Shown: positions 2,375 through 58,927 of the stretch, piece after piece | How the letters are laid out: the number at the start of each line of letters is the position of its first letter | Numbering within the stretch: position 1 is the stretch's first letter | The notes under the pieces: model-generated | The model's database searches: none | Told to the model about the DNA's origin: nothing | What the model saw: the letters and a program-made list of their open reading frames with translations, nothing else | Program-made: the position numbers and the translations under genes | Assembly (NCBI GenBank): GCA_934464615.1 | Contig: CAKSKA010000001.1 | Coordinates: 103,159-167,158 of the forward strand | Reading direction: 5' to 3' | Length of the DNA stretch: 64,000 nucleotides | DNA from: an uncultured Eubacteriales bacterium | GTDB lineage: Bacteria; Bacillota; Clostridia; Oscillospirales; Acutalibacteraceae

Positions 2375-3856
2375 ATGCGGGCAAACGGTATTTTAATGCC
2401 GATATTTTCATTGTCATCGGATTATCCGATAGGCACTATGGGAAAACCGGCTTACGAATTTATTGATTTTTTGGAAAAAGCAAAACAAACTTACTGGCAA
2501 ATATTGCCCGTAGGCCATACGGGATTCGGCGATTCGCCGTATCAGACGTTTTCGTGCTATGCGGGAAATCCTTATTTTATTGACCTTGAACTGCTTTATG
2601 ATAAAGGGTTGCTGACAAAAAAGGATTTAGAGGAAGAAAAAAGGTATTCGGAAGCGGACGGCGAAAATATAAATTACGGAAGACTGTATAAAACACGGTA
2701 TAAAACGCTTAAAAAAGCCTTCCGACTGTTTGAGGCGGACGAAAATTATACCGCGTTTTGCAATGAAAATGCGTATTGGCTTGAGCCTTACAGTATGTTT
2801 ATGGCGATAAAAGAGATACACGGCTCAAAAGGTATTGAAGATTGGGATATTGAGTATAAATTACGCGATTCCGCAGCGGTTGCGGCTGTGTCAGTACAAA
2901 GTGCCGAAAGTATTGAATTTTATAAATTTTTGCAATACGAATTTTTTGTGCAATGGCAGGCTATGCACGCCTATGCGGCGGCAGCCGGAATAAAAATAAT
3001 AGGCGATATGCCGATTTATGCCGCAGCCGACAGTGCGGATGTATGGAATGAGCCGGAGGTTTTTGCGGTTGATTCCCATATGACTCCCGTTTCGGTTGCG
3101 GGATGTCCGCCGGATGAATTTTCAAAAGACGGGCAACTGTGGGGAAATCCGCTTTACAATTGGGATAAAATGGCGCAAAATAATTTTGAATGGTGGAAGA
3201 GACGTTTAAGTCATAATTTTTCATTGTTTGATATTGTAAGAATAGACCATTTCAGAGGATTCGAATCTTACTACAGCATACCTTACGGTCTTACCGCGCG
3301 CAAAGGCAAGTGGGAAAAAGGTCCGTCCACGACGTTTTTTAACGAGATGAAACGGTGCTTCGGCAATGATATGCCTATAATAGCGGAAGATTTGGGATTT
3401 TTGACAGATGATGTAAGAAATCTGCTGAAAGAAACCGGATTTGCGGGTATGAAGGTGTTGCAGTTCGGCTTCGGCACAGGGCAGGACAGCGAATATCTGC
3501 CCCATAATTATACACGACACTGTGTTGTATATTTGGGTACCCACGATAACGACACCACCGCCGGATGGTTTAAGAATTTGAACGAGAGCGAAAAGGAAAA
3601 ACTGTTTTTGTACGCCGGCATTAAAAACGGTGACGATGTTGTGGAACGTATGATAGATCTTGCGATGGAAAGCGTTGCGGATATATGTATTTTAAGTATG
3701 CAGGATGTGCTGGGACTCGGCAGTCAGGCGCGCATTAATACGCCGTCTACGCTCGGGAATAACTGGCAATTTCGTATGAAAAAGCAAAATACGGACAGTA
3801 TAGCCGAAAGACTTGCCAAAAAAACGGAAGTATACGGCAGGGGCAAAATCGAATAG
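2375..3856 (+). CDS. malQ: 4-alpha-glucanotransferase (amylomaltase, GH77)
   Basis: GH77 motifs seen: GDMPIY, RIDHFRGF, IAEDLGF, GTHDNDT. Length 493 aa is typical for the family. Confidence 0.9.
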   Translation: MRANGILMPIFSLSSDYPIGTMGKPAYEFIDFLEKAKQTYWQILPVGHTGFGDSPYQTFSCYAGNPYFIDLELLYDKGLLTKKDLEEEKRYSEADGENINYGRLYKTRYKTLKKAFRLFEADENYTAFCNENAYWLEPYSMFMAIKEIHGSKGIEDWDIEYKLRDSAAVAAVSVQSAESIEFYKFLQYEFFVQWQAMHAYAAAAGIKIIGDMPIYAAADSADVWNEPEVFAVDSHMTPVSVAGCPPDEFSKDGQLWGNPLYNWDKMAQNNFEWWKRRLSHNFSLFDIVRIDHFRGFESYYSIPYGLTARKGKWEKGPSTTFFNEMKRCFGNDMPIIAEDLGFLTDDVRNLLKETGFAGMKVLQFGFGTGQDSEYLPHNYTRHCVVYLGTHDNDTTAGWFKNLNESEKEKLFLYAGIKNGDDVVERMIDLAMESVADICILSMQDVLGLGSQARINTPSTLGNNWQFRMKKQNTDSIAERLAKKTEVYGRGKIE

Positions 3857-26901: not shown

Positions 26902-26907
26902 AAAAAT

Positions 26908-27235
26908 GAGTTAATTGAACGGCTGCGTGTGGCAACACATGAGGAAAGTCCGAGCCCCGCAGGACAGGATAGCAGCTAACGGCTGCCGATGGTGACATTA
27001 GGGAAAGTGCAACAGAGATATACCGCCGCATATTAAGCGGTAAGGGTGGAAAGGCGAGGTAAGAGCTCACCGGCTGTCCGGAGACGGAACAGCCCTGTAA
27101 ACCCTATCCGGAGCAACGCTGACAAAGGCTATACACTTGTCCGGTGTGCCTTGAAAAGCGGCTTGAGCGTCGGAGCGATCCGACGTCGAGACAGATAGTC
27201 GTTCACGACAGAACTCGGCTTACAGATTAACTCGT
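26908..27235 (+). ncRNA. rnpB: RNase P RNA, bacterial type A
   Basis: Universal GAGGAAAGTCCG (P4 5' strand), GGTAAGAGCTCACC, and 3' ACAGAACTCGGCTTACAG. Terminal P1 pairing GAGTTAAT / ATTAACTC. Confidence 0.9.
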
Positions 27236-27237
27236 TT

Positions 27238-27267
27238 AAAAGCAATGCATTTTACGGCATTGCTTTT
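27238..27267 (+). terminator. Intrinsic terminator after rnpB
   Basis: AAAGCAATGC-attttacg-GCATTGCTTTT. Confidence 0.75.
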
Positions 27268-34784: not shown

Positions 34785-34923
34785 AAAATCTTCCTTACAG
34801 TTATTATAGAATATATTTTACCATAATTTTAAAATATTTTAAATAAATTTTCCGAATTTCTTTTTTTGTTCATAATTTTAGGTTATAATTACAATGCTTA
34901 TTTACATAAACGGAGATGAAAAT

Positions 34924-37554
34924 GTGTTAAGTCTTAAAAACATTAAAAAGGATTATATTACGGGCAACGAAACGGTGCAGGCGCTTAAAGGCGTAAGTAT
35001 AGACTTTAGGAAAAGCGAGTTTGTATCCATTCTCGGTCAGTCGGGCTGCGGTAAAACAACGCTGCTTAACATTATCGGCGGACTGGATAAATATACAAGC
35101 GGCGACCTTATTATAAGCGGCAGATCCACTAAAGAATTTAAGGACAGGGATTGGGACGCTTACCGCAACCATTCCGTAGGTTTTGTTTTCCAAAGCTATA
35201 ACCTTATTCCGCACCAAACGGTGCTTTCGAATGTTGAGTTGGCCCTGACGCTTTCGGGTGTATCTAAAAAAGAACGCCGCCAAAAAGCCATAGACGCACT
35301 GACAAAGGTAGGGCTTGCGGATCAGATAAACAAAAAGCCCAATCAAATGTCGGGCGGACAAATGCAGCGCGTTGCAATTGCAAGGGCGCTTGTTAATGAT
35401 CCGGAAATATTGCTGGCGGATGAACCCACAGGCGCGCTTGACTCCGCTACAAGTATACAGGTAATGGATATTTTAAAGGAAATATCCAAGGAAAAACTTG
35501 TAATAATGGTAACGCACAATCCCGAACTTGCGGAAAAATATTCAACAAGGATAATACGCGTGCTGGACGGAGAGGTTGTAAGCGACAGTAATCCGTATAC
35601 GGACGAGAGCGTGCTGCCGAAACCCGAAACAGACAAAAAAGCATCAAAAAAGGGAAGGCTTAAATCAATGTCGTTTTTTACGGCACTGTCATTAAGTTTC
35701 AATAACCTTATGACTAAAAAGGGCAGGACTTTTATGACTGCCTTTGCAGGCAGCATAGGAATAATAGGTATAGCCCTTATTTTATCAATATCCGCGGGAC
35801 TTGAAGCATATATTGCCAAAGTAGAGGAGGATACGCTGTCGGGTTATCCGGTAACTATCGAAGAATCCGCGGTGGATTTTACAAGCATGATGAAATCCAT
35901 GATGGGCAAGGATAAGGATACCGCACAGCAGGAAGAAGGCAGAATTTACTCAAACGATGTAATAGTGGATATGATGCAGGCGTTTTCTTCCGGTTCTGCC
36001 GAAAACAACCTTACCGATTTTAAAAAGTATATAGAAAACGGAGATACCGGTATTAAGGATTTGGTTACCGATATACAGTATCAGTACTCTACGCCTATGA
36101 ATATTTATAAAGCCGATACTTCCGACGGTATTGTGCAGGTAAATCCGGGCTGGGTGTTTGAAAAATTGGGAATGACATCGTCCGCACAGCAAAACAACAG
36201 CGTTATGAAAAGCATGACAAAGTCGGACGTATGGGCGCAATTGCTTGATAATGACGAACTTATAAATTCGCAATACGATGTAATTGCCGGAAAGCTGCCG
36301 GAAAATTCACACGAAGCGGTTTTAATAGTTGATAAAAACTCCCAGGTAAGCGACTATACCCTTTACACTCTCGGTCTGCGCGATTTTTCCGAAGTTGAGG
36401 AATTAATGAAAGCAATTATGGCAAATGAAGAATACGAAGTTAAATCCTCGTCATATTCTTTTGATGATATTTTGGGACTTGAGTATAAATTGCTTGTTAA
36501 TACCGACTGTTATGAAAAGGAAAACGGCGTTTGGACAGATAAAAGCAACGATGAAATTTATATGATGAACAAAATAAAAGACGCCGTTACCGTAAAGATA
36601 GTGGGAATATTAAAACCCAATAAGGATGCGACAGCCACGGCAAGTATAGACACGGTGGCGTATAAATCGTCACTTATGACAGAACTTGTAAATGCCGTAA
36701 ACGACAGCGAAATAGTAAAGGAACAAAAGGAAAACAGCGATACGGACGTATTTACCGGACTTAAATTTGCGGGCGGCGAGAAGACCGATTTAACCTACGA
36801 GCAGCTGCAGGAATATATGAGCACATTGCCGCCGCAAAAAGCTGCCGAAATGCAAAGCTATATGCAGCAAATGAAGCAGGCGGGTATGAGTGACGAAAAA
36901 ATACTTGAGGCGTTTGCTTCGTCGGTTGTAAAAACATCAGAGTCGACTTATGAGGAAAATCTTGACAAAATGGGTGTTTCGGAACTTGACAGCCCGTCGG
37001 TTATAAACATTTATCCCAAAGATTTTGCCGCTAAGGACGATATTGCCGATATTATAAGCCGTTATAACGACACGGTGAGTGAAACCGATAAAATCACCTA
37101 TACCGATTATGTCGGAATAATGATGTCCTCGATAACGACTATAATAAATGCCATAAGTTATATACTTATAGCGTTTGTCGCGATTTCACTTGTTGTATCT
37201 TCGATAATGATAGGAATTATAACCTACATTTCCGTACTTGAACGTACAAAGGAAATAGGTATTCTGCGCGCAATAGGCGCTTCCAAACGGGATGTGTCCA
37301 GAGTGTTTAACGCCGAAACGCTGATTATAGGATTTGTTGCCGGCGCTATAGGAATAGGAATTACATTACTGTTGACAATTCCGATAAATGCGCTTATAAG
37401 GAATATTGCAAAAATTTCGGCTACCGCCGTTTTGCCGTGGCAGGGCGCCGTAATTCTTGTAATTATAAGCATGCTGCTTACTTTCCTTGCGGGTACATTC
37501 CCGTCAAGAGTGGCGTCTAAAAAAGATCCCGTAATAGCACTTCGTACTGAATAA
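34924..37554 (+). CDS. MacB-type ABC transporter, fused ATPase + FtsX-like permease
   Basis: Canonical NBD: Walker A GQSGCGKTT, Q-loop VFQSYNL, signature MSGGQMQRVAIARAL, Walker B LLADEPTGALD, H-loop VTHN. This is followed by TM1, a ~440-aa extracytoplasmic domain and three C-terminal TMs. GTG 34924 lies behind GGAG; the tracked ORF starts at ATG 34894. Confidence 0.85.
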   Translation: MLSLKNIKKDYITGNETVQALKGVSIDFRKSEFVSILGQSGCGKTTLLNIIGGLDKYTSGDLIISGRSTKEFKDRDWDAYRNHSVGFVFQSYNLIPHQTVLSNVELALTLSGVSKKERRQKAIDALTKVGLADQINKKPNQMSGGQMQRVAIARALVNDPEILLADEPTGALDSATSIQVMDILKEISKEKLVIMVTHNPELAEKYSTRIIRVLDGEVVSDSNPYTDESVLPKPETDKKASKKGRLKSMSFFTALSLSFNNLMTKKGRTFMTAFAGSIGIIGIALILSISAGLEAYIAKVEEDTLSGYPVTIEESAVDFTSMMKSMMGKDKDTAQQEEGRIYSNDVIVDMMQAFSSGSAENNLTDFKKYIENGDTGIKDLVTDIQYQYSTPMNIYKADTSDGIVQVNPGWVFEKLGMTSSAQQNNSVMKSMTKSDVWAQLLDNDELINSQYDVIAGKLPENSHEAVLIVDKNSQVSDYTLYTLGLRDFSEVEELMKAIMANEEYEVKSSSYSFDDILGLEYKLLVNTDCYEKENGVWTDKSNDEIYMMNKIKDAVTVKIVGILKPNKDATATASIDTVAYKSSLMTELVNAVNDSEIVKEQKENSDTDVFTGLKFAGGEKTDLTYEQLQEYMSTLPPQKAAEMQSYMQQMKQAGMSDEKILEAFASSVVKTSESTYEENLDKMGVSELDSPSVINIYPKDFAAKDDIADIISRYNDTVSETDKITYTDYVGIMMSSITTIINAISYILIAFVAISLVVSSIMIGIITYISVLERTKEIGILRAIGASKRDVSRVFNAETLIIGFVAGAIGIGITLLLTIPINALIRNIAKISATAVLPWQGAVILVIISMLLTFLAGTFPSRVASKKDPVIALRTE

Positions 37555-37565
37555 AGGGGAAAAAT

Positions 37566-38261
37566 ATGGCAAAATTCAATCTTTCAATTTTGAAAAACGA
37601 GGACGGAAATTACAAGCACCTGCTTTATTTGCTGGTGGTACCGGTTTACCTTACCGTGTTTTTTATATGCGAAGCCGTTGTTAAAGACGATTACTATGTA
37701 ACGTATTTACCTATTGACGATAAAATACCGTTTAACGAGTGGTTTGTTATACCGTATTGCTTGTGGTATGTATACCTTGTGGGAATAGGGCTTTATCTTG
37801 TGTTTAAAGACATACCGCAATTTAAAAAATATATGCTTTGTTTGGGTTCGTCCTTCCTTGCGGCTTCGTTTCTTTTCCTTTTTTGGCACAACGGGCAGGA
37901 TTTAAGGGTTAATATCGACGTCCCCGCAAATTTTGCACAGGCATGGGTTAAATCGCTGTATGCGGCGGATACAAACACAAATGTGTGTCCCAGTTTGCAC
38001 GTTGTGGGTTGCTTTGTAGGTGCTTTTGCCGTGTTCAACTGCAAAAAACTTAACCGTCCGTATATAAGGATTTTAACCGTGATTTCCGCCGCTGTTATAA
38101 GCATTTCCACGGTATTTATTAAGCAGCACTCAATAGTTGATGTAATAGTCGCCGTGCCGTATTCGTTTATATTTTACTTTGCGGTTTATGTAATACCGAA
38201 GGTTATACAAAAGCGCAATTTACATAAAAAGGCATACGGCGCCGATATACAGGAAAAATAA
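37566..38261 (+). CDS. PAP2-superfamily integral membrane protein (PAP2_C / lipid phosphotransferase-like)
   Basis: Six hydrophobic segments with CPSLH and KQHSIVDV, which resemble the C2 and C3 (HxxxD) motifs of PAP2 enzymes. Confidence 0.55.
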   Translation: MAKFNLSILKNEDGNYKHLLYLLVVPVYLTVFFICEAVVKDDYYVTYLPIDDKIPFNEWFVIPYCLWYVYLVGIGLYLVFKDIPQFKKYMLCLGSSFLAASFLFLFWHNGQDLRVNIDVPANFAQAWVKSLYAADTNTNVCPSLHVVGCFVGAFAVFNCKKLNRPYIRILTVISAAVISISTVFIKQHSIVDVIVAVPYSFIFYFAVYVIPKVIQKRNLHKKAYGADIQEK

Positions 38262-38283
38262 ATATAAATTTACGGCTAAAAAG

Positions 38284-38325
38284 CAGGAAAAGGGTACAAA
38301 AACACCCCTTTTCCTGTTGTTTTTT
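38284..38325 (+). terminator. Intrinsic terminator after the PAP2 gene
   Basis: CAGGAAAAGGG-loop-CCCTTTTCCTG followed by TTGTTTTTTT. Confidence 0.75.
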
Positions 38326-38386
38326 ATCGGGTTATATTATATAATAATATAGTATGGATAATTATTACAAAAGCGGGAGAGCATAA

Positions 38387-41300
38387 ATGAAGCAATATGA
38401 TATATTTGCCGGTGCTGATGAACTGTTTGGGAAAAACGCCGATTCTTATGTTACTTATGCGCCGAATCTGTCGCAGGGCGTTGTATTTGATAAACGGTTT
38501 TTAAATTCATTAAAAGACGGTGCAAAATACGGCGCACGCGCTTTAAAGTGCATCAGAATTACAGAGGATTGCGATTTGCCTGCGCGTATAATAGGGTTTT
38601 ATAAAGTAGAGGACGGTCTGGCACGCAAATGCAAATATGCGGATGTAGGCGCTTTTGCGGTGTACAGCGAAATATTGCCGGGCAGTTTAAATCTTGTAAA
38701 CCCAAAAGCCGCGCAGTATGCGTTTTCAGCGGCGGCGCTTAAAAATCCGTCGGCAAAGTTTTATTGTGTAAATAACGATTTTTTTGCACCTGTACCTGTT
38801 TGGTCAAGCGTTATAAAAAAAACTTATATGCAAAAATACGGTCAGGATATAACCGAAAATTTAATTATGCTTTTCGAGGACGCAAAGGGCTGCAAGCGTT
38901 TCAGAAACAGATATTACGCCTTGACGGCGGAACTTGTAACGGATAATTTTTTGCGTCCGCTTAAAGATATATGCGTCGGTTCCGGTATATCGCTTTACGG
39001 CAGCAAAGCGTTTTCGCTGTCTGTCGCGGAGCAGGTATTGCCGAACAACGCACTTATAGGTATTTGCGATATTTACGACAAACTTTTCCTTTACTGTCCC
39101 GCAGAGTTGCTTGACGGTGCGTTTTTACGCAGATATATACGATTTTTTACATCATTCAAACCGCAGAAAATTGCCGCGGTGTTTTCCGACAATGATATAA
39201 AAAAGCTCTCGCTTAAAAGACTGGCGGCGTTTGCCGACAGACTGCTTGCCGGAGGAATAAGACAGTTCTGTATACCGCAGGGTACGGCGCAAAAAGGCAC
39301 AGACGGTAAAAAAGTGCAAATTTTGAAAAAGTACATACAAAATAATGCCGCCTTGCTTGATACGGGGGAGAGGATAAGCGATGTATTGGCGATTTATCCC
39401 TATTCTTCCGCGGCGGGCAACTTTTGTGCAAATAATATCGGTGCTGTTAAGGAATTCAACACCGTTACGCAAAAGGGAATTGATTTGCTTAACCGTGCCG
39501 ATATACTGTATGACGTTGCGTCGGAGCGCAGTCTCGGCCAGGAAATTAAAATAAGCGGAGCGCTGATAAGCGCCGCAAATAATAAGTATACCTGCCTTGT
39601 GCTGATGCCGTGCGATACACTGACACCCACCGCTGCCGGATTTATACTTAAATACACCGAAAACGGCGGCAGGGTTTATTGCATTGGCGAAAAGCCGTTA
39701 CTTATAGACGGTGTACAAAACAGCCGTATAGACGAAATATCGCAAAGAATCAAGCGCATAGGCGCAAAAGAAATATCACAGTTAAGGGCGGAGAGAACCC
39801 CGTTGTTTGATGATAACTGCATAGACGTTTATTGCTGTAAACTGCCCGACGGCAGCAAACTGTCCTTCGCGGCAAATATAAACGGGGACAGCGGCAGCGT
39901 AAGTTTTGCTTCGTTTGAAAATATTGCGGCGGTTGACACCGTTAACCGTGAACTTTTACCGGTAAATTTAAGCAATAAAATAGGCAAAGTTGCAGGAAAA
40001 CAGGTTATCGACCTTAAAAATTTTGAAAACTCCCATGCGGTTTTCCGCATAGGCGATATACCGCTGCAAAAGCCTAAACAGCCGGAGTATTTGAATTTAT
40101 CACCGTACTTTGATTTGACCGACAGCGGCGACAACACTTTTGTTATAAACAAATGCAGTGTGCGTAAAACCAACGGCAAATGGTCTGCACCTACGTGCAT
40201 AAAAAATGCTCTTAAAAATATGCAACGCGCGTCCCGCAAAAATATTACGGACTTAAAATTTGATTTTGAAATACGCGACTGCGAAAAAATAGGGGATATG
40301 CTGCTTTATTTTGAAAATCAGGCGCCGTATTCCGTATTTATAAACGACATACCCGTAAAAACGGCAGGGGAACCGACTGATATAAGAGAATTTGTTAAAG
40401 AAGGCGTAAACAGTATCCTTATCCGTTCCGAAAGTTTGGTGCAGCGCTTGAAAACGGAAGAAACGGCAATTTCCTGCCTGTTTATTTCAGGAAAGTTTGC
40501 GGTTGTGTCGACTGCTCCCGTAAGGAATGAAAAGTTTGCGGTACGCACAAAAAATGAATTTGTAATTACCGCGTTGCCTGCCGCCGTAAATATAGAACGG
40601 CTGACCGAGAACGGATTTTGGTTTTTCGGTTCCGATATGCTGCTGACTCAGCGTTTCACGTTGGAAGGAGAACCTGACAGCGCCGCACTGCTTAGATTTA
40701 AAAAGTTTAACGCTTTGTGTGCCTGTGTATGTGTAAACGGTGTTGATACAGCGGATATATGGGCACCGCCGTTTAAAACGAACGTGGGAAAATATTTACG
40801 CAAAGGCGAAAACGAAATAAGTATTCGTATTTTTGCGGATAATACAAATCTGCATGCACTTGACGGAATAACGGATGATAATGTCAGTCTTGAGCCCCTC
40901 GGTGCCGTACTGTTTACGGGGGATGAGGAACAGACCGATTATATTTGCTTAAAAGACGTTACCAAAACCTACGTTGACGGCGGAAAAACAATTTACGCCG
41001 TACGGGATGCCGATATAAATATAGGAATCGGAGAATTCACCGTGATTTACGGACCGACAGGCTCGGGTAAAACAACATTGCTTAACATTATCGGCGGAAT
41101 TGACACCTGCGACAGCGGCACGGTTTGCATAGAGGAAAATGATATAAACGAATATTCCGAGTCACGTTTGGCGGATTACAGGCGCAAAAATATCAGTTTT
41201 ATTTTTAAAGACGGCAATCTTTTGGATTATTTAACCGTAAACGATAATATAACGCTGTTTTGCGACAGCAAAAATCAGGTGCTTGATAACCGATTGGTTT

Positions 41301-41635
41301 TGCGTTCCGTAGGACTTGAGGACAAAGCGGACTGTACTGCCGCAAAACTTACCTTGTGCGAACAGCAAAAGGCGGCAATAGCAGGGGCGGTTGCTAAAAA
41401 TCCGCAAATAATACTGTGTGACGAACCGCTTGGAAAACTTAAGCAAAGCGATGCCGCCGAGGTTTTAAATCTTTTAAGAGAAACCTGCAGACTTACAGGC
41501 AAAACCGTAATAATTGCTACGGATAATAAAGCGCTTTGTGCGGCGGCTGACCGTGTTATAACGATCAGCGACGGCTGTATTACGGCAAACGAAGTAAATC
41601 CGAAACCGGCAAAGCTTGAAGAAATAGAGTGGTGA
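38387..41635 (+). CDS. Large cytoplasmic protein: ~850-aa uncharacterised (glycosidase-like) N-terminal module fused to a degenerate ABC ATPase domain
   Basis: The C-terminal ~230 aa have Walker A GPTGSGKTT and Walker B ILCDEP, but FIFKD for the Q-loop, LTLCEQ for LSGGQ, and ATDN for the H-loop. No TM segment or signal peptide is evident. The N-terminal module has jelly-roll-like GxNxIxIR strands. Confidence 0.8.
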   Translation: MKQYDIFAGADELFGKNADSYVTYAPNLSQGVVFDKRFLNSLKDGAKYGARALKCIRITEDCDLPARIIGFYKVEDGLARKCKYADVGAFAVYSEILPGSLNLVNPKAAQYAFSAAALKNPSAKFYCVNNDFFAPVPVWSSVIKKTYMQKYGQDITENLIMLFEDAKGCKRFRNRYYALTAELVTDNFLRPLKDICVGSGISLYGSKAFSLSVAEQVLPNNALIGICDIYDKLFLYCPAELLDGAFLRRYIRFFTSFKPQKIAAVFSDNDIKKLSLKRLAAFADRLLAGGIRQFCIPQGTAQKGTDGKKVQILKKYIQNNAALLDTGERISDVLAIYPYSSAAGNFCANNIGAVKEFNTVTQKGIDLLNRADILYDVASERSLGQEIKISGALISAANNKYTCLVLMPCDTLTPTAAGFILKYTENGGRVYCIGEKPLLIDGVQNSRIDEISQRIKRIGAKEISQLRAERTPLFDDNCIDVYCCKLPDGSKLSFAANINGDSGSVSFASFENIAAVDTVNRELLPVNLSNKIGKVAGKQVIDLKNFENSHAVFRIGDIPLQKPKQPEYLNLSPYFDLTDSGDNTFVINKCSVRKTNGKWSAPTCIKNALKNMQRASRKNITDLKFDFEIRDCEKIGDMLLYFENQAPYSVFINDIPVKTAGEPTDIREFVKEGVNSILIRSESLVQRLKTEETAISCLFISGKFAVVSTAPVRNEKFAVRTKNEFVITALPAAVNIERLTENGFWFFGSDMLLTQRFTLEGEPDSAALLRFKKFNALCACVCVNGVDTADIWAPPFKTNVGKYLRKGENEISIRIFADNTNLHALDGITDDNVSLEPLGAVLFTGDEEQTDYICLKDVTKTYVDGGKTIYAVRDADINIGIGEFTVIYGPTGSGKTTLLNIIGGIDTCDSGTVCIEENDINEYSESRLADYRRKNISFIFKDGNLLDYLTVNDNITLFCDSKNQVLDNRLVLRSVGLEDKADCTAAKLTLCEQQKAAIAGAVAKNPQIILCDEPLGKLKQSDAAEVLNLLRETCRLTGKTVIIATDNKALCAAADRVITISDGCITANEVNPKPAKLEEIEW

Positions 41636-41639
41636 AAAT

Positions 41640-44558
41640 ATGATTTTTAAGTTGTTAAAAAAGGAAATTGTCGGGAATATCGGCAGATTTGCATCCATAG
41701 CCTTAACCACACTTATAGGCGTTGCGTTTCTGTCGGGATTCTGGTCCGGTGTGCCGGATATGGAAAAAACGGCAGACGACTATTATATTAATTCAAATTT
41801 TCACGATATTAAAATAAATTCGGACAAAGGCTTTACAAAACAGGATTTAAAAGCAACCGAGGATCTGGATTATGTAAAAAAAGCACAGGCGGTATATTCG
41901 TTTTACTGCCTTGCCGGTATAAACGAAGCCGGCAGTTATACAACGTATGTAAGAAGCGTTAATATGGATACGCTTCAGGCAAATGATGCCGGTATAATAG
42001 ATACTCCGCAGCTTATTGAAGGCAGTTATCCCGTTACAAACAATACCTGCCTTATGGTACGCTCGGCAGCGCTTAAATCCGATGTTAAAATAGGCGACAG
42101 AATATATTTAACCACAAATACGGATAACTGCACAACCACCGTGTTTACCGTAACGGGTTTTGTAAGCGATCCGGAATTTACATCGGGAATAAAGGAAAAT
42201 GCGCCCGTAGGCAGCTCTAAAACCGAGATGGCAATTTATGTAAGCGAAAACATTTTTGTACCCGATGCAATGTATAACGAAATATTGTTAAAACTCAATA
42301 CGACACTCTCGCTTTCTTCTTTCGGTAAAAAATATGCGTCTGCCGTGCAGGAAGCAAAAACACAACTTTCCCTTATAGGCGAACAGCGCTCAAGCGATTT
42401 CAGCAATGATATGTCAGGTCAGTATCAAAGCGACATTGATAAAGCGCAAAGGCAGTACGAGTATATTAAAAGCGAATCCGAAGGCAAACTTAAATCTTTA
42501 AAAGACGCAATAGCCGCTGCCGAAAAAAGAATACCGGAACTTGAAACCGAAATTGAGGCGGCCAAGGCCGACCTGCAACAAAAAAAGCAAGAACTCGATA
42601 AAGTGTCCGCAAACGCTTCGGGACGTGTAACGTCCGGTACCGCAAGCGCCGCCGGCGAGACGGGCTCGTCATCTTCTTCGTCTTCCGCACCGTCGGCTCC
42701 CGCGCAAGACAGCGAGTATGAAAAGGCGCTTGCCGCATACAACAGCGCGCAGGAAGCATTAAACCAAAAAGAAAAAGAACTTGATAACAAACGTAATTCT
42801 TTGGTTACCTATAAAGCGGAATATACGGCGCTTGAAAAAACTTATGAGCAGCGGATGAACAGTGCCGAAAGAAATCTTGAACAGGTAACGAGTGACGGCA
42901 GCGATGACTACACGCAGGCATGGTATGTATATACAAGGGACGATAACGTAAGCTATAAGAGTTTTGTTGCAAATATTAATAAAATAAAGGCTATGGCATT
43001 TTTGTTCCCGCTGCTTTTTTACAGTGTTGCAATAGCGGCGGTGTTAAGTACCGTTACGCATACATTTACACAACAGCAAAAACGCATGGGGCTTATGCTG
43101 GCACAAGGACTTAACCGTAAAACCGTATTTGTACATAACTGCGCTTTTGTGCTTTCGGCAACCCTTGCCGGAAGCGTAGTCGGTTGTATATTGGGTATAA
43201 CGGTATTGCCGCAAATTATGTACCGCACATACAGCGTTGTATTTGATTTTCCGCCCATAAAAATACGCTTTGTGCCGTATGTTGTTTTGGGCAGTATTGT
43301 TTTAACGGTTTTGCTTGTGCTTGCGGTATCCGTATTAAAGCTTAAAGACCTTATTAAGCAAACGCCGGCAAGCCTTATACAGCAAAAGCAGTATGTAAAA
43401 GGCAAAAAAGTACCGGCGGAAAAAGGTTTTATTTGTAAAAGACTGAACATACAGTGGAAAACTGCCGTTAGGAATGTATCGCTTTATAAAGGCAGGGCAT
43501 TTGTATCGCTTTTAAGCATTGCAGGGTTTACCGCCCTTATTTTTGCATCATTCGGAATTTTAAATTCGGTAAGTTCGCTTGAAAATAAACAGCACAATTT
43601 GCAGCCTTATGACGTTTCGGTGCAGCTGCGTGTTGCCGATTATACATCCAAACCCGAAATTATGCAGTATTTGGAAAACGGGGAAAAGGTAAGCGATTAC
43701 ACATATGTTCATACCGCACAGGTAAAGACGCTTGTAAACGATAAAACAGTGGAAATTACGGTATATGCACCGACGCAGACCGACAAATTCACACAGTTTA
43801 TAAAACTGGATTCTGCCATAGGCAAAAACGAACTCGGCAGCAGCGATGTAATAATAAGCCGTAATTTTGCAAAGCAAAACAAGGTAAAAAAAGGCGACGG
43901 ACTTACGTTTATTATAGGCGGCAAGCAAACCGAGCTTACGGTAACTGCAATAGTGAAAAACTATATAGGCAATTTTGCCGTGGTGGGCTCCGATATATAT
44001 TCCGACAGTTTTGCCGACGGTAAATTTACACCTGCATTGCTTATTAAAAACAGCAGCAGTATTGAAGATACCGCACAACAGGCAACCGAACTTATGGGTA
44101 CGGGCGACGTCGGCACGGTAAATTATACTGCGGATACATTCGGCATTTTTAAGGGAACTGCCGAAAGACTTACAAAAGTTATAATAATGCTTATAATAAC
44201 CGCAGGTGTTTTGTGTGTGGCAGTGCTTTATTCGGCAGCGGATATAAATATTTGTGAGCGCACTGCCGAGTTTGCAAGGCTGCAGATACTCGGTTGCGGC
44301 AAATCCGGCGCAGCGGCTTATGTTTACCGCGAAAATGCAATTATTGCGGCGCTCGGCCTTATTATAGGACTTATTGCCGGTGTAATTTTAAATACGGCGG
44401 TAATGTCGGCTGCGGATATGAGCGATGTAATGTTCAGCAGAAGTATAAGTCCTGTCTCTTTTGCGGCGGCAATAGCTGCGGCTGTGGTTTTTGTACTTAT
44501 ACTTAATACCGCAACAAGGATAAGGATAGGCAAAATAAGCACGGAGGATACAAACTAA
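41640..44558 (+). CDS. ABC transporter permease with two fused FtsX/MacB-type 4-TM units
   Basis: Eight predicted TMs arranged 1+3 / 1+3. There are large extracytoplasmic domains after TM1 and TM5. The first carries a coiled-coil hairpin split by a Ser-rich linker (GETGSSSSSSSAPSAP). Starts 4 nt after the upstream stop. Confidence 0.85.
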   Translation: MIFKLLKKEIVGNIGRFASIALTTLIGVAFLSGFWSGVPDMEKTADDYYINSNFHDIKINSDKGFTKQDLKATEDLDYVKKAQAVYSFYCLAGINEAGSYTTYVRSVNMDTLQANDAGIIDTPQLIEGSYPVTNNTCLMVRSAALKSDVKIGDRIYLTTNTDNCTTTVFTVTGFVSDPEFTSGIKENAPVGSSKTEMAIYVSENIFVPDAMYNEILLKLNTTLSLSSFGKKYASAVQEAKTQLSLIGEQRSSDFSNDMSGQYQSDIDKAQRQYEYIKSESEGKLKSLKDAIAAAEKRIPELETEIEAAKADLQQKKQELDKVSANASGRVTSGTASAAGETGSSSSSSSAPSAPAQDSEYEKALAAYNSAQEALNQKEKELDNKRNSLVTYKAEYTALEKTYEQRMNSAERNLEQVTSDGSDDYTQAWYVYTRDDNVSYKSFVANINKIKAMAFLFPLLFYSVAIAAVLSTVTHTFTQQQKRMGLMLAQGLNRKTVFVHNCAFVLSATLAGSVVGCILGITVLPQIMYRTYSVVFDFPPIKIRFVPYVVLGSIVLTVLLVLAVSVLKLKDLIKQTPASLIQQKQYVKGKKVPAEKGFICKRLNIQWKTAVRNVSLYKGRAFVSLLSIAGFTALIFASFGILNSVSSLENKQHNLQPYDVSVQLRVADYTSKPEIMQYLENGEKVSDYTYVHTAQVKTLVNDKTVEITVYAPTQTDKFTQFIKLDSAIGKNELGSSDVIISRNFAKQNKVKKGDGLTFIIGGKQTELTVTAIVKNYIGNFAVVGSDIYSDSFADGKFTPALLIKNSSSIEDTAQQATELMGTGDVGTVNYTADTFGIFKGTAERLTKVIIMLIITAGVLCVAVLYSAADINICERTAEFARLQILGCGKSGAAAYVYRENAIIAALGLIIGLIAGVILNTAVMSAADMSDVMFSRSISPVSFAAAIAAAVVFVLILNTATRIRIGKISTEDTN

Positions 44559-44563
44559 AAAAA

Positions 44564-44584
44564 GCCCTCCCGTAAGGGAGGGGC
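44564..44584 (-). terminator. Intrinsic terminator after acpP
   Basis: Minus strand: GCCCCTCCC-ttac-GGGAGGGC followed by TTTTTTT. Confidence 0.65.
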
Positions 44585-47591: not shown

Positions 47592-49064
47592 TTATTTTAA
47601 ATATTTATATACCGCCGCAGTTTCAAAGCCTAATTCCGCAAAATCGGATTTGCTTTTTTCATCAAAGGCATAGTATATGCCGTTTACATTTGCAAACTGT
47701 TTTTTATACTTTTCAATGTAAATGTTGTTTTTAAATTTCGGCAGCTGCATATAAGCGGATTTGCCGTTGCCGGCTTTTGCACATATATCCAAAGTTCTTG
47801 CTGCGGGGCGGTCAAACACATTTTTTTCTATTACAAAATTTTCAGAATAGTTTTCGTGGTTTTGCCATGATTTAATGTATGCGGAATCAACCGTCTTGTT
47901 GCCGTGTCCGTATCCGCCCAGTCTGCAAAAATTGTAACCGAAATAAGTATTCACAAATCCGTTATCCGTTACGTTTGGTTGTGTATTAAAAAATTCAAAG
48001 GTGTATTCGCAAGTTTCAAACAGGCAATATCTTGTTATAAAATCGCGGAAAACGGATGGCTTTTCTTCATGCCAGTGATATTGCGGAGAAACGCCGGAAT
48101 CGAATTGCTGATAAATATAGCAATGGTCCCAGACAAAATTATCGCAGGAATGCCAGCAACCGCCGCCTCCTCCCATTCTGAGATGTTCGCCCGGGCGTGT
48201 ACAGTTACCGCCGCCCCAACCGAAAACGCAGTAACTTACTGTAATGTTGCGGCTGAAATTTGCCCAAAATGCTCCTCTGCCGTAAACAAATTCAATATTG
48301 TTAATACTTATATCGTGTGCATAATTTGTAGGATTGGTATCGGCAGGCCTTGAGTTCATATTTATACAAATTTCGCTGTATACCTCCGTCGGATTTCCCT
48401 CATCACAATACATATACAACTTGCCGTCTTTGTCCGGCTCACTTGCAAATTCGGTGTTTATCATAAAATCCGTATTCTTTTTAAGGTCTTTAAAATAATA
48501 CTTTTTATTGCCGTATGTACTGCCGTAGTTAAATACTATTTCCGGAATATCCGTATCCGGCAGCGGAATACTTAAACACCACACGTTTTTTATATTTGTC
48601 ATAACCCAGGCTGCGTAAGTCTTTCCGTCATAACATGCACGTATCTGCGGTTTCCTGCCCTCGCCGTAGGCGGAGTAACTTACACCGCTTGCCGCCTTTA
48701 AAACCCCGTAAAAGACATCATTACGGCGAAGATACACGGTATCCCCGTCGCAGTATTTATAAGAGTTTACCTTTTCAAGACTTGCCCAAGCCGTCTGCGG
48801 AGTTTTGCCGTCATTATTGTCATCGCCGTCTACGTTTACGTAATATGCTGTGTTTTTACAAGGCAGGGAATCATTATTGTACAATATCATATCCCGAAGA
48901 TCATCACCAAGCCTGTCTATATTGTTTATATATTCCGCTGTTGCAAAACCGTCGGCGTCATTTGCCAGCATATCAATTTTTTTGCTGTATTCATCCGTTG
49001 TCATAATATGTTTCGGAGGACAGTAGGGAATATAAGCGGTACTGTTAGAAAGTTTGCTATCCAT
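47592..49064 (-). CDS. Beta-helix-like protein family, paralog 1 (no signal peptide)
   Basis: Shares the family motifs YYV..DGDDNNDGK..TAW, GDTVYLRR, SYSAYG, DHCYIYQQFDSGVSPQY and CLFETCEYTFEFFN. Strong GAGAGGAG RBS. Has its own terminator. Confidence 0.85.
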   Translation of the reverse strand: MDSKLSNSTAYIPYCPPKHIMTTDEYSKKIDMLANDADGFATAEYINNIDRLGDDLRDMILYNNDSLPCKNTAYYVNVDGDDNNDGKTPQTAWASLEKVNSYKYCDGDTVYLRRNDVFYGVLKAASGVSYSAYGEGRKPQIRACYDGKTYAAWVMTNIKNVWCLSIPLPDTDIPEIVFNYGSTYGNKKYYFKDLKKNTDFMINTEFASEPDKDGKLYMYCDEGNPTEVYSEICINMNSRPADTNPTNYAHDISINNIEFVYGRGAFWANFSRNITVSYCVFGWGGGNCTRPGEHLRMGGGGGCWHSCDNFVWDHCYIYQQFDSGVSPQYHWHEEKPSVFRDFITRYCLFETCEYTFEFFNTQPNVTDNGFVNTYFGYNFCRLGGYGHGNKTVDSAYIKSWQNHENYSENFVIEKNVFDRPAARTLDICAKAGNGKSAYMQLPKFKNNIYIEKYKKQFANVNGIYYAFDEKSKSDFAELGFETAAVYKYLK

Positions 49065-49208: not shown

Positions 49209-50756
49209 TTATTCGCTGTAAATATATACAGAGTCGGTATCTGCACCGGTTTTTATAAGTTTGTTGATTTCATTCTCGTTAAACTTATACATGACATTAT
49301 TAATATTTGCGAATTTTTTGTCTTTTTTCTGTATATAAATATTGTTGTTGATTTTCGGCATTTTTTCGTAACTTAAAGTATTGCCCGAAGCCGACTGCTC
49401 GTACGATATAACTTCGAGTGTTAAGGCTGCGGCACGATCAAACAGGTTATATTCTATTTGGCAGTCAATACAGGTGTTTTCGTGTCCCCATGATTTTACG
49501 TATGCGCTCATTGAAGTCTTTGTGCCGAAACCGTAACCGCCTTTGCGGCACAGATTGTATGCAAAATACATACCTTCAAAACGGTTTTCAAGTGTATTTT
49601 TTTGGGAATTAAAGTACTCAAGGGTATATTCGCAGCCTTCAAACAAGCAGTTGGTGGTTTTAAAATCTTTAAATACAGACGGTGCTTCTTCCTCTCCGTC
49701 ATACTGGGGAGAAACACCGGAGTCAAACTGCTCATAAAAATAGCAGTGATCGTAAACAAAGTTATCGCAGCCGTGCCATGCACCGCTTCCGCCGCCGTAT
49801 CTTACGCCGCCTTTGGTGTCGGCAAATCCGCCGCACCAACCTATTATGCAGTAGGACATAAGTATATTTTGACTGTCTGTCGGCCAGAAAGGTCCGCGGC
49901 CGTGCAATAATTCAAGGTTGTTTATTGTTACATCATGCAGTTTTTTACCCGATGTTATTACCTGTGTATCAAGCGGTAATTCAATATCTGCAAAGACCTC
50001 TCCGGGATTTCCACCGTCGTAATAAACGTAAGCGCACATATCAATTTTGCCCTCTTCAACGGTAGGACCGCAGTATACAAAATCAAAATTCTTACTTAAT
50101 TTTGAAGGTTTTACTTTTTTGTCACCGCAGATTTCGTTGCCGTCTTTGTCGGTAAATAAAATATGTCCCATATCCTGTTGGGAGAATCTTTTGCTGTACT
50201 TCCATACGTTTTCTGTATCGGTCTTTTCCCAAGTGCCGTTGTCAGGGCCGTTTGTTGAGGCTACTATTCTCGGTTTATAACCCTCGCCGTAGGCGGAATA
50301 AGTCATTCCGTTCCTTGCAGACAGCGAACCGCGGAATGTATCTCCGCGACGGAAAAGGACGGCATCGCCTTCATTATAAGTATTCATACTGTTTACTTTT
50401 TCAAGAGTTTTCCATGCCGTTTTTTCCGATTTACCGTCGTTATTGTCATCACCGTCGTTAGATACATAGTAAGCGGTACCGGTAAAGGAAACGGATTCCT
50501 CATTGTATTTTATCTGTTCTTTAAGACGGTCGGTAAGATCGTCGACCTTTTTGTTAAACGCATCATCGGCAGTTGAAAAATTTGCGGTTTTAAGCAAATC
50601 CTTAAGTTCTGCCTGATACTCCTCGGTTGTCATTATGTTTTTAGGCTTAACGTACTTGTCTCCGTCTCCGCCGCCTTTTGTTTTTTTACAGGCTGATGCG
50701 GTAAAAATCAGGCAAATACATAAAATGAGTGCAGATAAATTTTTAATTTTTTTCAT
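49209..50756 (-). CDS. Beta-helix-like protein family, paralog 2 (lipoprotein)
   Basis: Signal peptide with a lipobox-like TASAC. The same family motifs are present. AAGGAG RBS. Confidence 0.85.
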   Translation of the reverse strand: MKKIKNLSALILCICLIFTASACKKTKGGGDGDKYVKPKNIMTTEEYQAELKDLLKTANFSTADDAFNKKVDDLTDRLKEQIKYNEESVSFTGTAYYVSNDGDDNNDGKSEKTAWKTLEKVNSMNTYNEGDAVLFRRGDTFRGSLSARNGMTYSAYGEGYKPRIVASTNGPDNGTWEKTDTENVWKYSKRFSQQDMGHILFTDKDGNEICGDKKVKPSKLSKNFDFVYCGPTVEEGKIDMCAYVYYDGGNPGEVFADIELPLDTQVITSGKKLHDVTINNLELLHGRGPFWPTDSQNILMSYCIIGWCGGFADTKGGVRYGGGSGAWHGCDNFVYDHCYFYEQFDSGVSPQYDGEEEAPSVFKDFKTTNCLFEGCEYTLEYFNSQKNTLENRFEGMYFAYNLCRKGGYGFGTKTSMSAYVKSWGHENTCIDCQIEYNLFDRAAALTLEVISYEQSASGNTLSYEKMPKINNNIYIQKKDKKFANINNVMYKFNENEINKLIKTGADTDSVYIYSE

Positions 50757-58759: not shown

Positions 58760-58927
58760 CTATCAGTACGTTACTGCGTACAGATATGCGATGATGTGGG
58801 AGGTGGCTGACCTCGAGTCAGGGAATTTCCACGGAGTATGTCCGATTTTAAACCGGGCGATAGAAACTTATCAACCAAGAGCTTACGGTACTTGCGAACC
58901 GTACAGCACACGGCTGCAAAGCCGTAC

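Follow-up and report, generated by a model that had tools for sequence, protein, structure and literature searches.

The ATP-binding cassette (ABC) systems of type VII, among them MacB, FtsEX, LolCDE, BceAB and YbbAP, are regarded as ATP-driven mechanotransmitters with small, canonical ATPase subunits. The accessory domains of ABC ATPases such as MalK, MetN, ModC and OpuAA are, to our knowledge, C-terminal, 100-150 residues long and not derived from enzymes. Degenerate ATP sites are found in heterodimeric ABC proteins such as TAP1/2, CFTR and TM287/288, where they bind ATP without efficient hydrolysis; those we know of are paired with one consensus site. In YbbAP(-TesA) and BceAB, the permease is a single pseudo-symmetric polypeptide that binds two copies of the ATPase (PMC12646458). 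The Ram106B subgroup of the glycosidase family GH106 occurs in Thermotoga, Caldicellulosiruptor and Thermoclostridium (PMC6828813). Here, we describe a gene pair of an uncultured Eubacteriales bacterium of the Acutalibacteraceae that combines features of these proteins. It is located in a stretch of 64,000 nucleotides (assembly GCA_934464615.1, contig CAKSKA010000001.1, positions 103,159 to 167,158), referred to as the window. The first gene encodes a fusion protein of 1082 residues with a GH106-derived module (the N-module) in front of an ABC domain, and the second encodes an FtsX-type permease of 972 residues.

The fusion protein has the same multi-domain fold as the GH106 proteins BT_0986, RHA-P and Ram106B and is, like the Ram106B-type relatives, without a signal peptide. 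In contrast to GH106 enzymes, it lacks the first ~100 residues, the D-E-P motif, the catalytic-base Glu and other motifs of the pocket, carries an ABC domain and is encoded in a housekeeping synteny and not in a sugar-utilisation locus. With the nucleotide-binding domains (NBDs) of MacB, FtsE, LolD, BceA, YbbA, HrtA and YtrE it shares the fold, the Walker A and B motifs and the position of the gene directly upstream of an FtsX-type permease, whereas the 850-residue N-terminal extension and the missing Q-loop Gln, LSGGQ signature, D-loop and H-loop His set it apart from these type VII NBDs. Like MalK, MetN, ModC and OpuAA, it has an extra soluble domain on the ATPase subunit. The window permease is, as in YbbAP and BceAB, a single chain with a pair of FtsX modules and a pair of MacB-type ectodomains, and by analogy a stoichiometry of two ATPases to one permease is expected. 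It differs from these permeases by having 8 instead of 10 transmembrane (TM) segments and a long coiled coil in ectodomain 1. Compared with YbbAP-TesA, the hydrolase-like part is cytoplasmic, fused to the ATPase and predicted to be dead, whereas the TesA-type partner is periplasmic and active. An initial annotation, made from the sequence of the window alone, had called the architecture undescribed, and no published description of a GH106-ABC fusion was found in the searchable literature. We conclude that it is a genuine new domain architecture inside the type VII ABC systems, and that the fusion is predicted to be the cytoplasmic subunit of a type VII (MacB/FtsEX-like) ABC membrane complex with the 8-TM FtsX permease. 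We are highly confident of the identity of the fusion protein and of its loss of canonical catalysis. The gene pair and the domains of the fusion are as follows.

38387..41635, forward strand: fusion gene with an ATG start, 1082 residues; predicted GH106-derived pseudo-glycosidase module and degenerate type VII ABC nucleotide-binding domain
38387..38518, forward strand: residues 1-44, N-terminal segment specific to the fused family (consensus MEKYN...), in place of the first ~100 residues of the stand-alone enzymes
38519..39376, forward strand: residues 45-330, remnant of the GH106 catalytic region
39377..39796, forward strand: residues 331-470, alpha/beta middle domain that contains YTCLVLMPC...GGRVYCIGEKP..LIDG
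39797..40921, forward strand: residues 471-845, beta-sandwich and, after it, two domains of the jelly-roll (GH2 galactose-binding-like) type
40943..41596, forward strand: residues 853-1070, MacB/FtsE/LolD-type ABC domain
41640..44558, forward strand: partner permease, 972 residues, 8 TM, two fused MacB-type 4-TM/FtsX modules; starts 4 nt past the fusion stop

The fusion and its GH106 ancestry

The initial annotation had proposed a large cytoplasmic module N-terminal to a MacB/FtsE-type ABC domain, with an FtsX permease adjoining, and this architecture was correct. It had also considered that an assembly error might have joined two genes. In independent assemblies of NCBI, ENA and Logan, five near-identical 1082-residue sequences in the same frame were recovered, the contigs being up to 272 kb long. 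When 1.84 billion cluster representatives, clustered at 50% identity, were searched exhaustively by HMMER, about ten divergent fused clusters of 1009-1085 residues were obtained that match the N-module from end to end. On alignment, these also have the C-terminal ABC domain and are about 26-37% identical to the window protein; P0002, for example, showed 32% identity over 1042 aligned residues, including the junction. In the AlphaFold2 (AF2) model, a short linker of ~10 residues joins two confidently folded parts. A separate ATPase with an internal start was considered and rejected: none of the start codons after the GAGGA-like junction sequence is suitably spaced from it, and from M751 to the ABC domain the frame contains no further ATG. 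With the frame continuous in the window, the five independent sequences in agreement, the junction conserved in the ~10 clusters and a linker of this length between the folded parts, an artefact of assembly or gene calling that unites a glycosidase gene and an ABC ATPase gene can be dismissed with near certainty. An assembly error is ruled out by the independent assemblies and by the orthologues that span the junction.

Word-index homology searches, started from the single N-module or from a profile of 10 sequences, returned two relatives only, and the size of the family therefore rests on the exhaustive HMMER search. This search, which answers the question of the initial annotation whether the same fusion occurs elsewhere, also returned 1898 proteins at E<=0.001 that are mostly stand-alone and ~950-1040 residues long. 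With ~10 clusters among the 1.84 billion representatives, the fusion is rare. It appears taxonomically narrow; the two members with a named taxon are a metagenome-assembled genome (MAG) of the Acutalibacteraceae (L003) and Candidatus Equinaster intestinalis, also of the Acutalibacteraceae. One orthologue is named by NCBI only as 'ATP-binding cassette domain-containing protein'.

No Pfam match was obtained at E<=0.01 in the N-terminal 850 residues, and the score for PF17132 was not reached. The homology of the N-module is visible only through profiles that include the stand-alone relatives. Such a profile matched the GH106 structures 6q2f (RHA-P) and 5mqm/5mwk (BT_0986) at 1e-56 to 3e-54. When the fused and the stand-alone family were compared by hhalign, 777 columns were aligned (fused 45-827, stand-alone 100-949) with a probability of 100 and an E of 2.4e-97. 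All of the 49 stand-alone relatives tested matched PF17132 (Glyco_hydro_106). Some stand-alone relatives also matched the GH2 galactose-binding-like families PF02837 and PF22666, and a few matched PF08532 (Glyco_hydro_42M) and PF22369 (GLMA_2nd). These matches support the jelly-roll, galactose-binding-like segments and the GH42-type middle segment, respectively, that the initial annotation had seen by eye. The three peptides it had quoted were all located in the protein, YTCLV...GEKP at residues 401-437, EGVNSILIRSE at 672-682 and KGENEISIRIFAD at 806-818. A profile built from the fused proteins only reached the GH106 structures solely via the last jelly roll (BT_0986 residues 1015-1072, E 4.6e-07).

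The predicted structure led to the same family. The full-length AF2 model, computed from an alignment of 73 sequences, had a mean predicted local distance difference test score (pLDDT) of 91.5 and a predicted template modelling score (pTM) of 0.79; a model from a two-sequence alignment was uninformative (pLDDT 33.6) and was discarded. When the model was compared with the PDB by Foldseek, a check that the initial annotation had suggested, the first match was the GH106 structure 6q2f (E 5.9e-21, 868 columns), and BT_0986 (5mwk) was matched with an E of 3.7e-18. We conclude from these results that the N-terminal ~850 residues are a divergent, shortened descendant of a cytoplasmic GH106 (Ram106B-like) alpha-L-rhamnosidase-type glycosidase. 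For the module 'of unknown function' of the initial annotation, the likeness to glycosidases was confirmed, and its origin turned out to be identifiable. No hydrophobic segments were found in the 1082-residue fusion by a Kyte-Doolittle scan (19-residue window, threshold 1.6), which bears out that the protein is without TM segments.

Active-site motifs of the two halves

To follow the active site of the N-module, 63 stand-alone relatives were used to define columns with a conservation of at least 80%, and these columns were compared with 10 fused proteins; the result was concordant with hhalign. The catalytic residues were mapped with the help of an RHA-P alignment and of BT_0986, where the catalytic-base Glu is E593 (LSE.F in Ram106B-like enzymes) and the metal-binding Asp/acid motif is D458/S459/E461 (F-T-D-E-P in close relatives) (PMC6828813). 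The motifs PFWSWND, GGFF.H.R.GL and YDE..WPSG, at positions 1-99 of the stand-alone proteins, are gaps in all fused proteins, and the missing segment probably held the first strands of the catalytic barrel. F-T-D-E-P, which is 97% conserved in the stand-alone relatives and has its Asp aligned with D458 of BT_0986, is C-V-N-N-D in the window protein (N129-N130-D131), and the D-E-P position is not conserved within the fused family. T-G-H...E of the stand-alone enzymes is Y-G-S...S in the window protein, with Y204-G-S206 in place of T-G-H. The P-G.D.L and S...Q.G motifs are lost in the fused family and the loop H.L..Y...G.RKRDYPP is deleted. The column of the catalytic base is V265 in the window protein; a Glu is present here in three of the 10 fused proteins, compared with 97% of the stand-alone relatives. 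Columns that are 95-100% conserved in the stand-alone proteins (D-E-P, T-G-H...E, P-G.D, S...Q, base Glu, RKRDYPP) are thus altered or deleted across the fused set, except for the base Glu in these three. In the closest stand-alone relative, P0012, every catalytic motif was present when analysed by hhalign. Since ~100 N-terminal residues of the catalytic region and nearly all active-site motifs are gone, we classify the N-module, judging by its residues, as a pseudo-glycosidase. The initial annotation had called the module enzyme-like; a plausible enzyme it is not.

Other parts of the N-module are kept. The middle domain (residues 331-470) is well conserved relative to its stand-alone counterparts. 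Landmark residues that persist in the middle and jelly-roll domains include Y401, G427-G428, P437, D441-G442, N583, N653, G673.N675, G702.F704, G743..F746, N784 and G807.N809. Within the fused family, a cluster of R171, R173 and R175 is invariant and E380 is also conserved; these residues could mark a putative binding site.

The ABC domain was matched by Pfam ABC_tran (PF00005) at residues 873-1015 with 79.6 bits against a cutoff of 25. The NCBIfam models for FtsE, MacB, LolD and DevA matched residues 853-1065, all under their equivalog cutoffs, and the position agrees with the last ~230 residues given in the initial annotation. The score of the FtsE equivalog TIGR02673 was 144.2 bits against a cutoff of 264.85, and the fusion is therefore not an FtsE. 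When the C-terminal part was searched by Foldseek, it matched MacB, MJ0796, BceA, LolD, FtsE, YbbA, HrtA and YtrE with target-normalised template modelling scores of 0.83-0.91, the score of 0.91 being that to the MacB NBD 5lj9. The identity to the solved NBDs was 26-36%.

In the window protein, the Walker A motif GPTGSGKTT (residues 889-897) and the Walker B motif IILCDEP (1008-1014) are intact, as is the conserved Tyr of the KTY motif upstream of Walker A. The Q-loop Gln is replaced by K941, the LSGGQ signature by LTLCEQQ (988-994), the D-loop (SALD) by LGKLK and the H-loop His by D1046. The initial annotation had overlooked that the Q-loop Gln, LSGGQ and the H-loop His are gone. Among the 10 representatives of the fused clusters, GK[ST] of Walker A and the Walker B Asp are each kept in nine. 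The Q-loop Gln and a canonical signature are each kept in one (P0010), and the H-loop His in one (P0009) and additionally in P0002. In the P0008/L003 lineage, both Walker A and Walker B are gone and the protein is still full-length. Within the ABC domain, the window and its 99%-identical conspecific L002 differ non-synonymously at a single codon, 1046 in the H-loop (41522-41524), which is Asp in the window and Asn in P0001. At the same position, P0002 has a His and its cluster representative P0003 an Asn, and the position seems free to vary. Just past the Q-loop, L945, T/V951 and an invariant N954 are conserved across the fused family; in our reading, this stretch may be the contact region for the coupling helix of the permease. 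ATPases of 233 residues that belong to related permeases are 40-44% identical to the ABC domain of the fusion and have the same C-terminal P..E.IEW tail. They are canonical throughout (GPSGAGKTT, FVFQ, LSGGEQQ, LLCDEPTGALD, VTHN).

Efficient hydrolysis by ABC proteins depends on the signature, the H-loop His and the Q-loop Gln, and in mutagenesis of ABC ATPases hydrolysis was nearly abolished when only the H-loop His or only the signature Ser/Gly was lost. As the domain of the fusion has defects on each face of the ATP sandwich, any dimer should be impaired at both of its sites, which distinguishes it from TAP1/2, CFTR and TM287/288. The ABC domain would thus bind ATP and hydrolyse little or none of it, and neither half of the protein is likely to be a normal working enzyme. 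Rescue in a heterodimer with a canonical ATPase, for instance the MacB-like protein encoded upstream, was considered and rejected, as the fusion domain is defective on the Walker/H-loop face and on the signature face. It is also disfavoured by one orthologue that pairs with a single-module permease expected to homodimerise.

The partner permease, selection and possible modes of action

The fusion and permease genes overlap or are at most 4 nt apart in all eight loci that had enough sequence (the window, L001, L002, L003, L013, L015, L016 and L017). PF02687 matched twice in the 972-residue permease and 8 TM were found in a hydropathy scan; MacB_PCD was matched by one orthologue. Ectodomain 1 extends from residue ~39 to 450 and ectodomain 2 from ~639 to 846. 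Inside ectodomain 1, a coiled-coil insertion of ~190 residues (~235-425) includes a Ser/Ala-rich low-complexity stretch, …SGTASAAGETGSSSSSSSAPSAPAQ…. This plan is common to four other loci. The L003 permease has no second ectodomain and no Pfam FtsX match (L003:15-5203), and the L016 permease is a single 4-TM module of 587 residues (L016:10001-14901). What stays constant is therefore ectodomain 1 with its coiled coil. The initial annotation had named a double-FtsX permease as the neighbour; an FtsX partner was always present, whereas the double module was not. Distant relatives of the permease (23-26% identity) are preceded by ordinary 233-residue ATPases in a Clostridiales Family XIII MAG (P0159) and in Streptococcus suis (P0171). 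In Clostridiales Family XIII, Streptococcus suis and Lagierella, distant relatives of 1050-1200 residues have a comparable coiled coil and a normal 233-residue ATPase as the partner. The coiled-coil permease subfamily appears to be uncharacterised.

The rate of evolution was compared in five genomes. The mean pairwise identity was 70% for ligA, 72% for aroC and 64% for the MacB-like neighbour (78% for its ABC domain). For the fusion it was 32% (ABC domain 41%, N-module 30%) and for the permease 31%. The single pairwise values of the two proteins were nearly the same, 0.32/0.39/0.30/0.33 for the fusion and 0.32/0.39/0.30/0.32 for the permease, and this matched divergence fits two subunits of one fast-evolving complex. 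Against the conspecific L002, the ratio of non-synonymous to synonymous substitution rates (dN/dS) was 0.17 for the fusion, from 17 synonymous and 10 non-synonymous changes, and thereby close to the values of the permease (0.14) and aroC (0.10). A full-length open reading frame (ORF) was present in every orthologue of both genes, across a divergence down to ~23% identity, with ~1000-1085 codons for the fusion and 587-985 codons for the permease. In the non-catalytic domains, dozens of invariant residues persist. We conclude that the fusion and the permease are maintained as a pair under purifying selection. An ATPase subunit has gained an 850-residue module derived from an enzyme and both halves have lost catalytic residues, yet the pair is under purifying selection in uncultured gut Clostridia.

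On balance, and with modest confidence, we favour the reading that an exapted GH106 remnant and a degenerate ABC domain are part of an FtsX complex. A glycosidase gene was joined to the 5' end of an ordinary MacB-type ATPase gene of ~233 codons, apparently in the ancestor of a small lineage that includes the Acutalibacteraceae. After the fusion, the glycosidase part shed ~100 residues at the N-terminal end of its catalytic region together with nearly every residue of the active site, and the ATPase part kept Walker A and B and lost the Q-loop Gln, LSGGQ, the D-loop and the H-loop His. The ABC domain would then mainly dock the protein on the coupling helices of the permease and perhaps act as a switch that binds ATP and hydrolyses it slowly or not at all. 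On the cytoplasmic face, the middle and jelly-roll domains that were kept would provide a scaffold without catalysis, a clamp for dimerisation or a sensor of a ligand; of these, a scaffold or a sensor, either of them non-catalytic, is the most likely role of the module. The complex would hold or modulate the extracellular coiled-coil ectodomain, setting or stabilising its conformation, instead of driving rapid ATP-powered mechanotransmission. This scaffold or switch mechanism is put forward tentatively. If the exaptation is true, the protein would be a clear natural case of double pseudoenzyme exaptation and a test case for what an ABC scaffold is capable of without efficient hydrolysis. In inventories of carbohydrate-active enzymes and transporters from gut metagenomes, the family should count neither as glycosidases nor as active transport ATPases.

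Several points weigh against this reading. The loss of motifs is no proof of inactivity, and with E1013 and the Walker A Lys present a slow hydrolysis is possible. P0010 retains a canonical signature and Q-loop. The dN/dS is based on 27 substitutions only, and the high rate could reflect relaxed constraint and not a specific new role. A new active site may also have formed in the glycosidase remnant, where the R171/R173/R175 cluster and E380 are conserved.

It is unlikely, though worth considering, that the ABC domain is still a working motor and that the GH106-derived module is its ligand-sensing regulatory domain, comparable to that of MalK or MetN but N-terminal and far larger. The intact Walker A, Walker B Asp-Glu and KTY Tyr of the window protein and the conserved L945, T/V951 and N954 would suit a motor, as would the purifying selection on the gene and the non-catalytic GH domains being the best conserved part of the N-module. 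Against a motor stand the joint loss of the Q-loop Gln, LSGGQ, the D-loop and the H-loop His in nearly all members, the full-length protein of the lineage without Walker A and B, a sugar pocket that is largely dismantled and the textbook mutagenesis, in which loss of the H-loop His or the signature alone has nearly abolished hydrolysis. It is very unlikely that the two genes are a relic of evolution that drifts under weak constraint and has no specific function: the ORFs are intact in every lineage examined down to ~23% identity, the dN/dS values are 0.17 and 0.14, dozens of residues in the non-catalytic domains are invariant, and the order, position and coupling of the genes are strictly conserved. 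The low identity of ~31-32% in genomes with ~70% for ligA and aroC, the decay of catalytic motifs in both halves and the reduced permeases of L003 and L016 would be accounted for by such a drift.

It is highly improbable that the N-module is a hydrolase with a re-modelled active site that processes a glycoconjugate in the cytoplasm and is coordinated with export or extraction by the permease. The overall GH106 fold is retained at high model confidence, a Glu stands at the catalytic-base column in three of the 10 fused proteins, and YbbAP, also of type VII, has a partner hydrolase, though in the periplasm (PMC12646458). However, none of the 10 fused proteins has the complete catalytic set and the window protein keeps none of it, with N129/N130 for D/E, S206 for the His, V265 for the Glu and the RKRDYPP loop deleted. 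The ~100 missing residues of the catalytic region and the lack of sugar-metabolism neighbours also argue against a hydrolase. Returning to the exaptation that we favour, one can go further and imagine an ABC-shaped transmembrane device that is no longer run by ATP hydrolysis, with the dead glycosidase as a cytoplasmic input relayed via the FtsX permease to the coiled coil; we regard this as quite unlikely. The glycosidase remnant would then bind a cytoplasmic glycan, sugar-phosphate or envelope precursor, or clamp two ABC domains. If true, type VII would include a signalling or structural variant that is independent of hydrolysis, with the first ABC subunit made from two pseudoenzymes.

Neighbouring genes and other features of the window

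The gene pair lies in a syntenic housekeeping order of der, plsY, gpsA, ligA (reverse strand), an 886-residue MacB-like ABC-FtsX protein, fusion, permease, acpP (reverse strand), aroC and proS. No sugar-metabolism genes are among the neighbours of the fusion locus, whereas the stand-alone GH106-like relatives adjoin sugar genes of the GH2, GH78-like, ROK and FGGY type. In L004, two ORFs of 1018 and 719 residues beside a stand-alone relative were examined as a second fused gene; they are a GH2 beta-galactosidase and a GH78-like protein. The following signals flank the gene pair.

38280..38330, forward strand: GC-rich hairpin followed by a T-run, directly past the stop of the PAP2 gene, sequence CAGGAAAAGGGT...ACCCCTTTTCCTG TTGTTTTTT
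38375..38381, forward strand: Shine-Dalgarno-like GGGAGAG, 5 nt 5' of the fusion ATG, as read from the sequence
44565..44582, reverse strand: hairpin resembling a terminator, located between the gene of the permease and the convergent gene of the acyl carrier protein, from a terminator scan; the position of the acyl-carrier-protein gene is inferred from L002

The hairpin at 38280..38330 probably sets the fusion operon apart from the genes upstream of it. Together with the T-run after the PAP2-like gene, it suggests that the fusion ORF opens its own transcription unit. The terminator scan called the same stem on the reverse strand (38311-38288), with consensus evidence only.

The MacB-like protein of 886 residues (34894-37554, forward strand) has an N-terminal ABC domain with fully canonical motifs, followed by TM1, an ectodomain of ~450 residues and an FtsX module. 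Its gene is directly upstream of the fusion in five of the six informative loci. In L016 it is ~7 kb upstream, with a radical-SAM/SPASM and AraC cluster between the two genes. In the window, a membrane protein of the PAP2 superfamily (37566-38261, forward strand), with weak Pfam matches and six hydrophobic segments, is encoded between the MacB-like and the fusion gene. It belongs to the window lineage only, with a matching fragment at the 5' end of L002, and was not found at this position in L001, L013, L015 and L017.

The defence models of PADLOC gave only generic ABC and coiled-coil matches, and a defence role is not supported. The PADLOC profiles PDLC01990 and PDLC01991 are named CARF_m8--CARF_Beta-galactosidase_LolE_TM and, going by the name, CARF_Beta-galactosidase_LolE_TM would be another union of a glycosidase-like domain with a LolE/FtsX-type membrane module. 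The fusion protein was matched by neither of the two profiles; the upstream MacB-like protein was matched by its FtsX part only.

Two further, adjacent ORFs on the reverse strand, of 490 residues (47592-49064) and 515 residues (49209-50756), had no Pfam match at E<=1e-4; both occur in the conspecific contig L002 as well, again without annotation. The window also contains a tRNA-Ile(GAT) (3036-3111), an RNase P class A RNA (26907-27238, 262.8 bits) and an S10-Clostridia ribosomal-protein leader (58783-58863, 41.8 bits), all on the forward strand, which fit a core region of a Clostridia chromosome.

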